Below the pieces are notes generated by a model, which was not told the DNA's origin, searched no databases, and saw only the letters and a program-made list of their open reading frames with translations. DNA of 61,052 nt from a virus (Duplodnaviria > Caudoviricetes). Shown here piece after piece: positions 39,133 to 45,923 of this stretch; position 1 is the stretch's first letter, and each line of letters starts with the position of its first letter. Where the stretch lies: positions 1-61,052 of the IMG/VR virus record IMGVR_UViG_3300046780_000585; one strand, written 5' to 3'. Made by a program: the position numbers and the translations under genes.

Positions 39133-39714
39133 CTAGAACAGCCCTCCCGCAATCAACATCGTCGAGTAAGGGCCGGTCATGCCGGTTGAACCGGTAGGGC
39201 CGGTCGCTCCGGCCGTGCCTGCGCCACCAGCAGCACCTGTCATGCCGGTTGGCCCCGTCGTTCCAGGCGCTCCAGCACCGCCAGCCGAACCAGCTTGACC
39301 TGTAGCACCAGTCGGCCCGGTCGCCCCCGCCGATCCGACGCCGCCGCCTGCACCTACAGCACCTGTCGAACCCGATGGGCCGGTCGCTCCCGTCGATCCA
39401 ACACCAGTCGGACCCGTCGGTCCCGAACCACCGCCACCCGCGCCTGTTCCAGTTGGCCCAATGGCTCCCGTCGGACCCGTCGCACCAAGTCCGGTCGGCC
39501 CGGTTGATCCTGTATTGCCAACCGGGCCCAATCCGCTCGGCCCGGTCGGTCCGATCGATCCCGTGAGCCCGGTTGCTCCTGTCGGTCCAGACGGTCCTGC
39601 CGGTCCTGTCGTAACTCCAACAACCCACACACCCCGCGACGTGTAGGTGTAGGTCACGCCGCCATACGTGTAAGTCTGTCCTACCGACGGAGAACTGGGG
39701 AAATCGATCGGCAT
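39133..39714 (-). CDS. Collagen-like fibre protein
   Basis: [13 protein letters not shown] followed by GXT repeats. Confidence 0.8.
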
Positions 39715-40523
39715 CAGACCACCCACCCCGGAAGCAGCAGCGTCACCGCTCCACCACTACCACCTCCGCCAGGCCCGGTCGGTCCCGCCAGCGGCGGTGC
39801 CACCTGCACCCACTGCGTGGAATTGCCGTCGTCGATCCAGATCGACAGGATGCCGGTCGTCAGATCGTACCAGAGATATCCCGGTGTCGGAGAAGCCGGC
39901 GGCGTGCTCGAGCCCGTGTAACCACCGCCACCGCTCCCACCCCCGCTTCCCGCGGCTCCCGTCGGCCCGGTCGCACCCGTATTGGCAGCCGACCCGCCAG
40001 GGCCTGCAGGACCCACCACCCCCTGTGGACCAGGCGCTCCAGTAGGCCCAGCGGCTCCAGCTGCACCGGCACCCCCGGCTGTACCCGACGGACCGGTGGC
40101 GCCCGTGTTGACTGCGGTGCCCGGTGTTCCAGTCGGTCCGGTCTGCCCGACGCGCCCGGTCGGACCCGTGGCACCAGTCGCACCAGTCGCGGACGCCACG
40201 CCAGGGATGCCCGTAGGACCCGTAGAGCCCGTCGGCCCGAGCCCGCTGGCTCCCGTCGCGCCCGTTGGTCCAAGCGTCCCGACACCCACCGGGCCAGTCT
40301 GCCCGATCGATCCCGTCGGACCCGTGATTGCCAGGCCGGTTGGCCCGATTGATCCCGTCGGTCCAGTGAACGCGCCAAGTCCGGTTGGACCGGTAGCCGC
40401 CGCTCCGGTAGGACCCGTAGGACCGGTGCCACCCGTCGGACCGCCAGCCGGACCCGTATGCCCGCCGACAACCACGACCGGTCGCGTCGACACGATGGCA
40501 GGTTCGTTCTTTATGACCGCCAC
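39714..40523 (-). CDS. Collagen-like fibre protein
   Basis: GXT repeats; [18 protein letters not shown]. Confidence 0.8.
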
Positions 40524-42104: not shown

Positions 42105-44805
42105 TTATCCGCCCGAGATGACCTGCGCCTGACAGAGCGCAGTTCCGTCGATTACCTGATCCTTTATCTTCATAACGAGACGCTACTCTCGCTACCGCCT
42201 TTCGGCTGCTGCATGTTCCCATGCAGAGGAGACTATATCATCACCCACTTGGGGTGCCGGGCGCTTCGGACCGCTTGGTCCTACGAGCTTGCGCTCTAGT
42301 CGTTGCACCTTCCGCTCACGCGGCTTGGCTCAGGATTGGCCGGTCTGGCGTTCCCCTGAATTCACCCGGTTGTTCGATGCCGATTACTCGGCAAAGGGAC
42401 TTCAAGATTGTTAATCCGTACACCTGCAGGCCGCGAAGGATCTGACCAAACGTTAGCTCAGAGCGCAGAGTCTCGAGTTTCGAAATTTGCGATGCGAACG
42501 TAATCCCGTGGGCGTGGCCAGCAAAGATCGGAAACTCGCCCGCTGAGAAGTTGGCTGAATCGCTCGCGTTGGTCGGCAGCAGGTTCGAGATATACAACGT
42601 GAATCGATCAATCATTCCGAGCCGGCCATTGCGCAGCATCGAGACCGGATCGCCCGACAGATAGGCCTGCCTGAGTTCCGACTGCTTGATCTGTCGTCCG
42701 GCCCACGCCGGCATCACCACCCAGCGGCCGACCTCCGGGATGTTCTGCTCGTCGAGGCACTCCCCCATGCGCAGAAGCAGATCAATCAGATTGGACTGAC
42801 CGGCCGTCGCACCCTGCCCGACCACCGTGATCGGCGTGCCCTTGATGCCGAGGTTGAGATTGGCGTACTTCCCGGCCGTCGCGCCGCGGTTGGTCGCCGC
42901 GCATTGCCCGACGATGCCGTCGAGCACTTCCGTGTCGACCGCGATCTTTAGCTGCTGTGCCGCATCCCTTATCTTCATAACGAGACGCTACTCTCGTTAC
43001 CGCCTTTTGGGCTGCTGCATGTTCCCATGCAGAGGAGACTATATCATCACCCCTTTCGGGGGCCGGGCGCTTCGGACCGCTTGGCCCTACGAGCTTTCGC
43101 TCTAGTCGTTGCACCTTCCGCTTGCGCGGCTTGGCTCAGGATTGGCCGGTCTGGCGTTCCCCTGAATTCACCCGGTTGTTCGATGCTAATTGCTCAAGCA
43201 AAGGGACTCTGACGAATCCGACCAAATAGACAGGACATTCAGATCGCTCTGCACCTCCATCACGTCGTCGAGGATCAGAGAGAAGTAAAAGCCGTTGCCG
43301 ATGTAGAGTTCGACCGAGCCTCCAGTCGGTCGATCAAGACCGAGCAAACCGTCCGCCTGATACTTGCGGATCGTGATCGTAGGCTTCGTCCGGATTTTCA
43401 CCCGGTCGCCTTGGTTCGCGATTTCGCCTTCGTAGTCGGTCGCTAGCGTCTCAGGCGCTTACCTGATCTGCTTCCCACTGTCGCTTACGCTGTTGCGCAC
43501 CAGGTCCCATGAACGACGGAATATCACGTACCGTCGCCAGAAGCCTGGCCACTTCAGCGCCCGGACCACTCAGTCTGTGCGGCTGGACTTGGAGTTGTTT
43601 CATCGCCAATTGGATACGCTCCGCGTCGCGGAAATGTCCCATCCTGGCGCAACCAATAAGAAAATACGCCTGATCGTTCTTGAGCACCATGTGCTTGGCC
43701 AATGCAGTTTTACCGCTCTCGAACATCGAGCGGACTTTGGCCGCGTCCATAGACAGCACCCAATTAACCATCGACGTACCATTCTCGGTTACAAACTCCT
43801 GAACGGATCCTCCGTAAGCCTTCTGCAACAGATCGATACCAACCCGTTCGAAGGCTTCATCGCATACCGAAAGCACCGGCTGTGCCGACATGCCCTTTGG
43901 AATGCGAATTGCAAACGATCCGTTCCCGTCGATATATCCGGCTGCCCATTTTCGTGTCGGATGTTTCGGCATTGGAGATGCGCCTCGCGCTGCATCAAAC
44001 CGCTGCTTCCCCACCTGCACGTCCATAACCTCGCCGTTCATATCGATGGCGCAGTCGGCAAGTGCTCTTTTCAAGACCAGGAACTTGCGAAGCCGCATCA
44101 GAACGCTGACAGCCTTGGTGCCCGCTGTATTCCAGTGAAAAGCACCACTCTTTTCATACATTCCAATATGCCCCCACACTTTATCGAGTGAAGGCGGCGT
44201 CAGACTGGACGCAATCAACTCCATGAAACTACGACCCGGTGCTTTCTGACAAAACGAAACTACAGCGTAAGCACGCTGCGGCCCTGTTCCGTCCCAGTTT
44301 TCGCGCCGCATCGGTGGATTCCACATCAACTGAATGCTTCCATCGCTATCCAACAGTCCTGCAAGGTACTTGTCGCTGAGCCGGTCCTTGCCTCTGGTTC
44401 CCTTCGGTTCCAGTTTTTCAGGTCCGGTATTGCTCGAACTACCGTTTAATTCGAGATCGCGCTCAACACGGTTGAGGCGTAGCTTTCCGACAAAAGCCGG
44501 ACCGACTATCGCTTCAGGGGCAACCCCTGCTGGATCACTTAGTCTGTGCGGGTGCGTGCTCATGCTTCCCTCGGGTTCCAGCCAACTATGAAGGTTCCCG
44601 TTTTTCAGATCCAGTTTAAAGAAGTCCTAGCGAACTTCTCGACCAGCTTAGCTGCATTCAGAACTGATCAAATTTGGCCAGCTTGGAACCAAATTTCCGG
44701 AATAAAGCCCGTTGATTGGAGTAGGTTTCCGGTAGACCCTACGGGGGTCAGGGGCGGGACTGAGCCTGACGTTGCGCCAGGAAAACCCGCACTCGGGATA
44801 GGCAT
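42105..44805 (-). CDS. Major capsid protein, six exons: 44805-44688, 44654-44633, 44482-44449, 43440-43216, 42966-42414, 42160-42105 (335 aa spliced)
   Basis: Joined exons total 1008 nt with no internal stop: ..GFIPEIWSAKLVEKFYASTVLSAISNTDYEGEIANQGDRVKIR..WSDDAAQQLK..RGLQVYGYQVIDG..*; follows the scaffold gene. Confidence 0.92.
42161..42413 (-). mobile_element. Group I intron 5 (253 nt, no ORF, IA-like)
   Basis: Exon GGAU pairs with IGS GUCC; P3 CCGGGU/GCCCGG; P7 GACUA/UAGUC; two extra hairpins after P7; terminal G. Confidence 0.92.
42967..43215 (-). mobile_element. Group I intron 4 (249 nt, no ORF, IA-like)
   Basis: Exon GGAU/IGS GUCC; P10 CGUC/GAUG; CAACGACUA..GAUAUAGUC; near-identical to intron 5. 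Confidence 0.92.
43441..44448 (-). mobile_element. Group I intron 3 (1008 nt) carrying a LAGLIDADG ORF
   Basis: P1 CUCGAAU/GUUCGAG; P10 CGGU/ACCG; P3 CCGGACC/GGUCCGG; P4 CUGG/CCAG; P7 5' CAGACUG; terminal G. Confidence 0.88.
43451..44563 (-). CDS. Double-motif LAGLIDADG homing endonuclease/maturase
   Basis: YLAGLLDSDGSI and WAAGYIDGNGSF; the ATG lies in intron 2. Confidence 0.88.
   Translation of the reverse strand: MSTHPHRLSDPAGVAPEAIVGPAFVGKLRLNRVERDLELNGSSSNTGPEKLEPKGTRGKDRLSDKYLAGLLDSDGSIQLMWNPPMRRENWDGTGPQRAYAVVSFCQKAPGRSFMELIASSLTPPSLDKVWGHIGMYEKSGAFHWNTAGTKAVSVLMRLRKFLVLKRALADCAIDMNGEVMDVQVGKQRFDAARGASPMPKHPTRKWAAGYIDGNGSFAIRIPKGMSAQPVLSVCDEAFERVGIDLLQKAYGGSVQEFVTENGTSMVNWVLSMDAAKVRSMFESGKTALAKHMVLKNDQAYFLIGCARMGHFRDAERIQLAMKQLQVQPHRLSGPGAEVARLLATVRDIPSFMGPGAQQRKRQWEADQVSA
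44483..44632 (-). mobile_element. Group I intron 2 (150 nt, minimal)
   Basis: P1 AGAAGUU/GACUUCU; P3 CUGGAUC/GAUCCAG; P4 CGGG/CCCG; P7 CAGACUA/UAGUCG; P8 CAGGGG/CCCCUG; P9 CCGGC/GUCGG; terminal G. Confidence 0.9.
44655..44687 (-). mobile_element. 33-nt core-less group I-type mini-intron (intron 1)
   Basis: UCCAAGCUGGCCAAAUUUGAUCAGUUCUGAAUG; 9-bp P1 with U.G at the splice site; 5-bp P10; terminal G; contains an in-frame UGA. Confidence 0.8.
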
Positions 44806-44834: not shown

Positions 44835-44864
44835 GGTCCTTATAGGATACGGGCGGCCCCCGGT

Positions 44865-45923
44865 TTATCGGTAGCGCCCCTCGCGCTGGGCTGCGAACAT
44901 ATCGGCCTCCAGCCGAGCCCACTCGGCTTCGCGACCGACATACGCACCTTTACGGTGCTGTTCGTACAGCTGCTTGACTTGGGCGCGTGAGTAGATGGGT
45001 TTGTCGGGCGGCACCGAGGCATCGCCTCCGGTTGCCGGCCTGGCCCTGCCAGGGGCTGCCAAGGAGCCTAGATCGACGGCCGGGGTTCGAGGAGGCGGGG
45101 CCTGCTGAACGGCGGGCGAAGGCTCGATGTGACCCGTGGCTTGCTCTTCCTGTAGGAATCCTCTGAAGAACGAGATGACTCTAGGGGCGTCGGCCGCTGA
45201 AATCGCTTCGTTCAACAATTGCTGTCTAACACGGCCCGAAAGCATGTCAAGCGAGAGCAGCCACCTGTGCCAGCGGGGATCGCGGTCGACGTCGCGGAAG
45301 TTCGGCACCGCGAGCTCGAGGCGCTGGTCCAGGTTCCGCCGCGCCTCGACCGCGAGGCGCCGCTGCATCTCGGCGTTCTGCTGCTTGATCTCCTGCAGCT
45401 CGGGGCTTAGCGCCTGCGCGGCGGCGCGCTGGGTGAAGTTGATCAGGTCGCTGCCGTAGTTCTGGACGTCCTGCTCCGTCACGTAAGCCGGTGGCGGCGG
45501 CAGCGAAGACGGTGCGGTGCGCCCATTGTGATAAACCGTCTGCTGGGTCTGTAACAGTTCGTTACCGAGCTGGGTCATCTGCTCCTGCATCTCGGCGAGC
45601 GTCTTCTGCGACGCGTCATAGCGCCCCTTCATCGCCAGATAGCGATGCTCCCAATTCTCAGGCTTGGGCTCGGAGGAAGGAGCGGGTTCCGCAGGCGCTG
45701 GCTCAGCCGGTGGTGTGGCTTGGGCGGCGGGAGCCGGCGCCTGCGGAGCCGGAGCTTCCGGCGGCGGGGCAGAGGGTTGCTCCGGCGCGGGCTCAGCAAG
45801 CTGGCCTTTCTTGTTGTAAAGCGCATCGACCGCCGCGGCACGCTTTTTCACGGCGTCGGGGATCGAGTCCGGATCGATCGGCAGTTTCGCCATCGGCTTT
45901 TCGTCGACGGTCACGTCAGCCAT
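44865..45923 (-). CDS. Capsid scaffolding protein
   Basis: Pro-rich linker, WEHRYLAMKGRYD coiled coil, ends AAQREGR; directly upstream of the capsid gene. Confidence 0.78.
   Translation of the reverse strand: MADVTVDEKPMAKLPIDPDSIPDAVKKRAAAVDALYNKKGQLAEPAPEQPSAPPPEAPAPQAPAPAAQATPPAEPAPAEPAPSSEPKPENWEHRYLAMKGRYDASQKTLAEMQEQMTQLGNELLQTQQTVYHNGRTAPSSLPPPPAYVTEQDVQNYGSDLINFTQRAAAQALSPELQEIKQQNAEMQRRLAVEARRNLDQRLELAVPNFRDVDRDPRWHRWLLSLDMLSGRVRQQLLNEAISAADAPRVISFFRGFLQEEQATGHIEPSPAVQQAPPPRTPAVDLGSLAAPGRARPATGGDASVPPDKPIYSRAQVKQLYEQHRKGAYVGREAEWARLEADMFAAQREGRYR

Follow-up and report, generated by a model that had tools for sequence, protein, structure and literature searches.

Group I introns are the textbook case of self-splicing RNA, and orf142 of phage Twort is said to carry three of them. 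Brochothrix phage A9 has an nrdE gene that is described as containing three introns (PMC3653736), and for the Jug phages a mean of 18.5 introns per genome is given (PMC12880540). In this study we describe a capsid gene that is located in the window, by which we mean the whole stretch of DNA that was analysed, a complete IMG/VR virus record of 61,052 bases (IMGVR_UViG_3300046780_000585) with a CheckV completeness of 97%. The window is the nearly complete genome of an uncultivated soil phage, the nearest cultured relatives of which are four Rhizobium phages of ~60.9 kilobases each. The capsid gene has much in common with A9 nrdE, Twort orf142 and the genes of the Jug phages: group I introns, some of them with homing endonucleases, are found in conserved parts of essential phage genes and their presence is variable among relatives. 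Unlike in those systems, four full introns and a mini-intron are combined here in one capsid gene and enclose exons of 22 and 34 nucleotides (nt), with the proviso that the supplementary tables of the papers may hold higher counts. A preliminary description of the locus had held that phage genes usually contain one to three such introns. This agrees with A9 nrdE (PMC3653736); nevertheless the intron count alone is less surprising than that statement suggests, because heavy phage intron loads, such as the 18.5 introns per Jug genome, are already in print.

The main finding concerns the first of the five intervening sequences of the capsid gene, a 33-nt element which has kept the splice-site helices of a group I intron and is devoid of a catalytic core. 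From the sequence comparisons given below a multi-intron capsid gene is established and the removal of all five elements as RNA is strongly implied. As the probable explanation of the whole locus we suggest that the gene carries four full introns and a mini-intron derived by deletion, and that the mini-intron is spliced by the ribozyme of a neighbour.

By rebuilding the exon model from the window we could show that the joined exons amount to 1008 nt and code for 335 amino acids (aa) followed by a stop codon, without any internal stop. The intervening sequences of 33, 150, 1008, 249 and 253 nt make up 62.7% of the 2701-nt locus, and the codons at which they are inserted are highly conserved. 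At all five junctions the exon ends with T and the intervening sequence ends with G, and at each of them a P1 helix with a U·G wobble is found (AAAUUUGGU/GCCAAAUUU, AGAAGUU/GACUUCU, CUCGAAU/GUUCGAG and, twice, GGAU/GUCC; the exon contributes just 4 base pairs to P1 of introns 4 and 5). When the joined protein is aligned to the major capsid protein of Rhizobium phage RHph_TM3_14A, which has 328 aa and is encoded without interruption, 211 of the 336 columns are identical and no gap occurs at the five junctions. In addition, a near-identical virus (contig L004) has exons 1-4 as a single unbroken stretch of 399 nt, which codes for exactly the same protein without insertion or deletion relative to the joined model. 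One large intron spanning 44687-43441 was also considered and was rejected, because the gap-free alignment requires the exons of 22 and 34 nt. These results confirm the exon boundaries, the two micro-exons and the stop-free product of 335 aa which the preliminary description had proposed, as well as its rule of exon-final U and intron-final G with a P1 helix at every junction, its estimate of about 63% for the intron share and its expectation that capsid proteins would align without gaps at the junctions. It had further stated that programs calling open reading frames (ORFs) miss the gene, and indeed the ORF listing contains only fragments of 45, 71 and 220 aa. It had also raised the idea that splicing might time the assembly of heads.

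By homology to known major capsid proteins, the product is a major capsid protein, putatively of the HK97 type. Exon 5 matches PHROG 267 ('major head protein') with an E value of 2.4e-25, and the homologues in the four Rhizobium phages are annotated as major capsid protein. When 19 intact relatives are combined into a profile, 8e16 (E 3.7e-25) and 9jwb (E 8.9e-6), both solved capsid proteins, are recovered. An AlphaFold2 model of an intact relative (L009) is of low confidence, with a mean predicted local distance difference test score of 46.7, and is too poor for a fold search.

Table 1. Features of the capsid locus; positions are those of the window.
Feature	Position	Strand	Length	Remarks
Capsid locus, whole	44805-42105	minus	2701 nt	six exons, five intervening sequences
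Exon 1	44805-44688	minus	118 nt	ATG at 44805; 3′ end ...TGGT; identical protein, no insertion or deletion relative to the uninterrupted L004 allele
Intron 1 (mini-intron)	44687-44655	minus	33 nt	no core
Exon 2 (micro-exon)	44654-44633	minus	22 nt	
Intron 2	44632-44483	minus	150 nt	ORF-less group I intron
Exon 3 (micro-exon)	44482-44449	minus	34 nt	
Intron 3	44448-43441	minus	1008 nt	carries the LAGLIDADG endonuclease ORF
Endonuclease open frame	44563-43451	minus	370 aa	conserved part 43454-44392
Exon 4	43440-43216	minus	225 nt	
Intron 4	43215-42967	minus	249 nt	Rfam RF00028
Exon 5	42966-42414	minus	553 nt	PHROG 267
Intron 5	42413-42161	minus	253 nt	Rfam RF00028
Exon 6	42160-42105	minus	56 nt	stop TAA, last base 42105

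The 33-nt element of the window holds a guide, a short loop, a tail and a terminal G only. The P3-P9 core is absent, and for this reason we file the element as a derivative of group I introns and not as a complete member. Its P1 (AAAUUUGGU/GCCAAAUUU) is formed by the guide and the final nine bases of exon 1 and has a U·G wobble as its last pair, at the splice site. P10 (AGCUG/CAGCU) arises from the pairing of the opening five bases of exon 2 with the five that lie next to the P1 guide on its 5′ side. GAUCAG in the tail pairs with CUGGUC of exon 2 in a further helix, PX, and the element has G as its final base. Within exon 2, nucleotides 1-5 belong to P10 of intron 1, nucleotides 9-14 to PX and nucleotides 16-22 to P1 of intron 2. 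In the minimum-free-energy fold of 44702-44475, P1 of the mini-intron, PX and P1 of intron 2 appear as three abutting hairpins which are followed by the helices of intron 2. The insertion site is the Trp-Ser junction within an invariant Trp-Ser-x-Lys-Leu stretch of the capsid protein.

Elements of this type also occur in other capsid genes. With search patterns that consisted of the splice-site helices only, the downstream intron being no part of the pattern, we found mini-introns at 23 further loci, which represent 19 distinct sequences of 34-57 nt. Some of the capsid genes which bear them are only ~25% identical to the window gene, and the flanking codons are intact. In the relatives the mini-introns follow Phe-Ile-Pro codons, all of them 10 nt upstream of the window site; at its own site the window element has re-matched P1, P10 and PX. 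Every one of the 19 distinct sequences has the terminal G and is preceded by an exon-final U. Position 6 of P10 is C-G in 10 of them and U-A in 5; of the other four, two have U·G and two are unpaired. PX covaries as well (CUGACC/GGUCAG, CCGACC/GGUCGG, CGGACC/GGUCCG and CGCUCC/GGAGCG, a switch of the Ser codon included). The energy of PX is -12.2 kcal/mol with the own exon, -8.7 with the exons of other loci and -6.5 (standard deviation 2.8) for shuffled tails, and it is -10 or lower in 11 of 13 cases. No mini-intron was seen in the 66 uninterrupted related capsid genes, and a pattern scan of genome contigs gave at least 120 matches, none of which is in a capsid context among the matches listed.

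Two loci (L019 and L051) contain full-length introns of ~630-680 nt at the mini-intron site of the relatives, and their guide and tail motif are those of the mini-introns. For this reason the mini-introns look like internal deletions of a full-length group I intron in which guide, tail and terminal G were kept. Furthermore, a full group I intron of either family is located 3′ of every mini-intron at a distance of 21-81 nt (boundaries set by eye). When the window is counted there are 20 distinct modules, of which 14 have a distance of 21-23 nt, one of 32 nt and five of 72-81 nt. In the short modules the micro-exon is fully occupied, by P10, PX and P1 of the next intron in this order. At L061:2083-3157 and L230:34-351 the group I hit of Rfam that covers the downstream intron already starts at P1 of the mini-intron, and the model treats the tail of the mini-intron, the exon of 72-75 nt and the real P1 of the intron as an insertion.

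Intron 2, the nearest full intron in the window, can be folded into P1 and P3-P9 with the P3/P7 pseudoknot included; P2 is absent. Its P7 is canonical, with C-G, a bulged A and then G-C. We aligned intron 2 with four ORF-less relatives from L006, L008 and two sites of L089 (alignment A3), for which the structure was written by hand; the members are 146-160 nt long, well under the ~206 nt that small phage introns average in the account of PMC12880540. In this alignment 89% of the cells are paired and changes on both sides occur at 10 pairs, values which were reached in none of 500 shuffles. P3, P6, P7 and P8 are 100% paired throughout the intron 2 family and have compensatory changes at 3, 0, 2 and 3 pairs, respectively. 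The covariation thus supports the assignment of intron 2 as a group I intron with a complete core of P1 and P3-P9. At L089:5211-5364 (minus strand) there is a further ORF-less member of this family, 146 nt long, at a new site between Lys-Pro-Thr-Ile and Thr-Ile-Arg and with two compensatory changes in P7.

Intron 3 has core motifs in common with intron 2, and of the core it has P3, P6 and the greater part of P7. In its P7 the 3′ strand (43470-43490, minus strand) reads CAGUGGG, so that G·G stands where the guanosine-binding pair is expected. The same G·G is found in all five copies of the intron 3 lineage (window, L006, L008, L089 and L031), whereas in the relatives from L099 and L092 and in intron 2 the fifth base is C (CAGUCGG or UAGUCGG), which gives a G-C pair. 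The P7 bases of intron 3 also encode Lys-Arg-Gln-Trp in the tail of the endonuclease.

Introns 4 and 5 score 77.5 and 83.4 bits with RF00028 (cut-off 50), and the Rfam alignment contains the P3-P9 core with the P3/P7 pseudoknot and the guanosine site in P7. They are identical at 230 of 256 positions (90%), with most of the differences in the 5′ guide region. No match to RF00028 is found for introns 1, 2 and 3 across 44687-43441, even at E<=10. The preliminary description had spoken of five group I introns in two structural families plus the mini-intron and had proposed a scan with group I covariance models. The two families and the mini-intron are recovered here, in the near-identity of introns 4 and 5 and in the core motifs common to introns 2 and 3. 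Its count of five has to be modified: introns 4 and 5 are group I introns according to Rfam and introns 2 and 3 according to a hand-built model, with covariation in the case of intron 2, while the 33-nt element is core-less.

On this basis we suggest how the mini-intron might be removed. The splicing would follow the normal two-step chemistry of group I introns, and the core would be contributed by another intron of the same transcript. The likeliest helper would be intron 2, only 22 nt downstream, which might act in cis or, once excised, as a free ribozyme. On this reading the full introns would carry the mini-intron as a non-autonomous passenger. We infer splicing by a neighbouring core because the group I splice-site determinants have been kept and a core is absent, because a full intron is always close by, and because engineered group I cores provide precedents for the excision of segments in trans. 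We also considered a helper core standing alone in another part of the genome and rejected it, as neither Rfam nor a motif search found cores other than those of introns 2-5 in this 97%-complete genome.

The precedents are the trans-excision-splicing ribozymes and the 'spliceozymes', in which a group I core excises an internal segment from a separate RNA and joins the flanks (PMC2532722, PMC4094466). These are laboratory constructs with the guide in the ribozyme, whereas the mini-intron carries the guide in the excised segment and the system would be a natural one. Very short exons flanked by mitochondrial group I introns are described for the placozoan cox1 gene (PMC5436844); unlike the case reported here, in which a core-less intron lies beside a full one, the introns in that account are organellar and either full or assembled in trans. 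Literature searches directed at core-less group I mini-introns next to full introns gave no description of such elements. Small degenerate group I introns that have lost some parts of the core are said to occur in lichen ribosomal DNA, that is, in eukaryotic nuclear rRNA genes, and to our knowledge these have not been linked to a neighbouring helper intron. Both the lichen introns and the mini-introns are short group I derivatives, and the host genes are nuclear rRNA genes in the one case and phage capsid genes in the other.

Several points weigh against splicing by a neighbouring ribozyme. In the metatranscriptome data (two runs, which seem to be the same data set deposited in duplicate) coverage is limited to 42661-42846 and 44856-44900 and joints are absent, so that these data are silent on splicing. 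All examples are metagenomic: when both module types were compared by blastn with 50,697 records of cultured phages, none was found. Our literature search did not yield a natural group I core that splices a separate core-less intron, and as its basis is co-occurrence together with engineered precedents, the helper step is one that we infer. Introns 2 and 3 fail Rfam, and the covariation comes from just five sequences. The spacing varies from 21 to 81 nt and the neighbour may belong to either intron family; one fixed composite structure is therefore disfavoured. In L031 intron 3 with its G·G occurs without intron 2, which makes the rules for a competent core unclear. Finally, the co-occurrence of mini-introns and full introns could result from linkage by co-conversion without any catalytic dependence.

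Other explanations appear less probable to us. It might be that the element is cut out by proteins, in such a way that an endonuclease recognises the helices and an RNA ligase such as RtcB seals the nick aligned by the guide. P1 and P10 would indeed set the exon ends side by side on a continuous guide, an arrangement which a nick-sealing ligase could use. We consider this route unlikely, since the features that have been kept, namely the U·G, the terminal G and the guide of the full introns at the same site, are exactly the determinants of a group I splice site. We know of no such pathway for bacterial or phage mRNA.

A second explanation is suggested by the 50-nt coding gap of T4 gene 60, which is proposed to be a degenerate group I intron and is linked to a homing endonuclease (PMC5009743). 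Like the mini-introns, this gap is a short non-coding insert in a phage gene with a link to a homing endonuclease, and the 33 nt could in principle stay unspliced and be bypassed by the ribosome in the same manner. The proposed origin of the gap, the shortness of the window element and the in-frame TGA inside it would fit. However, the T4 gap is kept in the mRNA and bypassed via matched codons, whereas the mini-introns are without matched codons and their splice-site helices covary. By eye, the required boundaries show no matched take-off and landing codons, neither in the window nor at the Pro-Glu site of the relatives, and the take-off codon has no stop codon next to it. As bypass would in addition leave the wobble between exon U and guide G, the terminal G and the compensatory changes in P10 and PX unexplained, we regard it as very improbable.

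The capsid gene might also be dead; the 33 nt would then be a scar that is not removed, and the contig would represent a defective phage or have arisen as a by-product of recombination. The purely metagenomic origin of the examples and the limited RNA coverage would be in line with this. On the contrary, all exons are intact and the protein of exons 1-4 is identical to that of the uninterrupted allele; differing mini-introns recur in capsid genes with an identity of ~25%, always between intact flanking codons; the helices are maintained by compensatory changes; and the allele is present in 22 soil or rhizosphere runs. A dead gene is thus hardly to be expected.

Translation of the 33 nt by read-through of the in-frame TGA, which would insert 11 residues, is extremely improbable: 33 is divisible by three and the frame is continuous but for the TGA, whereas 12 of the 19 mini-introns of the relatives are not multiples of three (34, 35, 37, 38 and 40 nt), the one of 57 nt has an in-frame stop, and the insertion would hit the Trp-Ser-x-Lys-Leu stretch, at which none of 19 aligned intact proteins (alignment A5) and none of the further intact relatives has an insertion. 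Next to no chance is left for an autonomous, very small self-splicing ribozyme, in favour of which nothing but its conserved helices can be named: the 33-nt element cannot be a ribozyme by itself because all its bases are accounted for by the guide, the loop and the exon-pairing tail, so that no room remains for a guanosine-binding site, and no Rfam family matches it at E<=10.

Splicing of the mini-intron by a neighbouring core is the explanation which we prefer. The ORF of intron 3 is located in the P6 loop and extends through P7-P9. The encoded protein has two LAGLIDADG motifs. With a profile built from this protein and four relatives, the matches in the PDB are nearly all LAGLIDADG enzymes or engineered derivatives of them; I-CreI variants (5.9e-5), I-SmaMI, I-MsoI and I-OnuI are matched over both halves. 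The profile is required for this result, as the single endonuclease sequence gave no sequence match in the PDB. Pfam LAGLIDADG_1 matches all five members with a best E value of 1.1e-6; the window copy scores 17.5 bits, under the cut-off of 23.1. The sole ATG of the 370-aa frame lies inside intron 2, in the P6 loop, and the frame runs across exon 3 in a shifted register. Translation from this ATG would be possible only on unspliced RNA. In L031 and L099 an ATG directly precedes Leu-Ser-Asp/Glu-Lys-Tyr; the window frame (44563-44392, minus strand) lacks this ATG and has CGG in its place. That the 370-aa ORF is an intein was considered as well and rejected by eye, as its frame differs from that of the flanking exons.

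The distribution of the introns was followed in 80 related loci, which were kept from 591 confirmed candidates. The capsid gene is uninterrupted in 66 of them and interrupted in 14, with varying patterns. Four loci (L006, L007, L010 and L088) have introns 1-3, the mini-intron included, and lack introns 4 and 5. L004 and L005 have different introns and these only at the sites of introns 4 and 5, the mini-intron being absent in L004. Intron 3 is alone in L031, all five are found in L008, and L089 has five, one of them at a new site. Ten interrupted loci were scanned with Rfam, and eight introns in six of them passed.

The comparison of the window with L004 bears on how the introns arrived. Upstream of the gene 1 of 200 bases differs. 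Within exons 1-4 there are 41 differences, all of them synonymous, and along the stretch they are distributed as 0/90, 32/135 and 9/174. The synonymous patch is sharply bounded (44712-44581 and 43440-43389, corresponding to nucleotides 93-225 of the joined gene), clusters around the sites of introns 1-3 and includes a switch of the Ser codon (AGT versus TCA) at the mini-intron junction. A patch of this kind is what homing is expected to leave behind when the flanking exons are co-converted. Homing is recognised by the precise presence or absence of introns in comparison with intron-less alleles together with co-converted flanks, and both are observed here. The mini-intron lies within the co-converted tract and for this reason would move together with the full introns when these home.

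The capsid locus is not an artefact of assembly, because in 22 of 24 listed soil or rhizosphere runs half or more of the words sampled from the region are present (lowest share 0.63) and an identical contig of 1387 nt which spans introns 1-3 is found in each of the two DNA runs that were examined. In one of these two runs (X2) there is a DNA contig which joins 43437 to 44689, with unknown letters in between, at a depth of 6.9 versus 16.9, as would be expected if an allele lacking introns 1-3 occurred in that soil sample together with the intron-bearing one.

Taking the endonuclease and the mobility together, we put forward as a tentative possibility that the introns form a consortium, in which intron 2 would provide the catalysis and intron 3, with what would be a damaged guanosine site, the endonuclease, while intron 1 would contribute nothing and be spliced by the core of intron 2. 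The three would move as a block by co-conversion, and core-less mini-introns might be a widespread non-autonomous class in phage capsid genes. In that case they would be the ribozyme counterpart of miniature transposons.

If splicing by the neighbouring ribozyme is true, a single ribozyme core would in nature act for a further intron that has no core of its own, something that is so far known only from engineered ribozymes. A non-autonomous tier would be added to the ecology of selfish introns, and the persistence of crippled introns in essential genes would be explained. The system for a test is small, as an RNA of ~230 nt comprises it. The locus also has a bearing on annotation. Gene callers and Rfam miss the mini-introns as well as the compact intron family of 146-160 nt, and as a consequence capsid marker genes end up in pieces or disappear when metagenomes are annotated.

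Downstream of the head genes, at 39714-40523 on the minus strand, the window contains a frame of 269 aa which consists mostly of collagen-like repeats of the types Gly-Pro-Thr-Gly and Gly-X-Y. Its product is probably a fibre or decoration protein.

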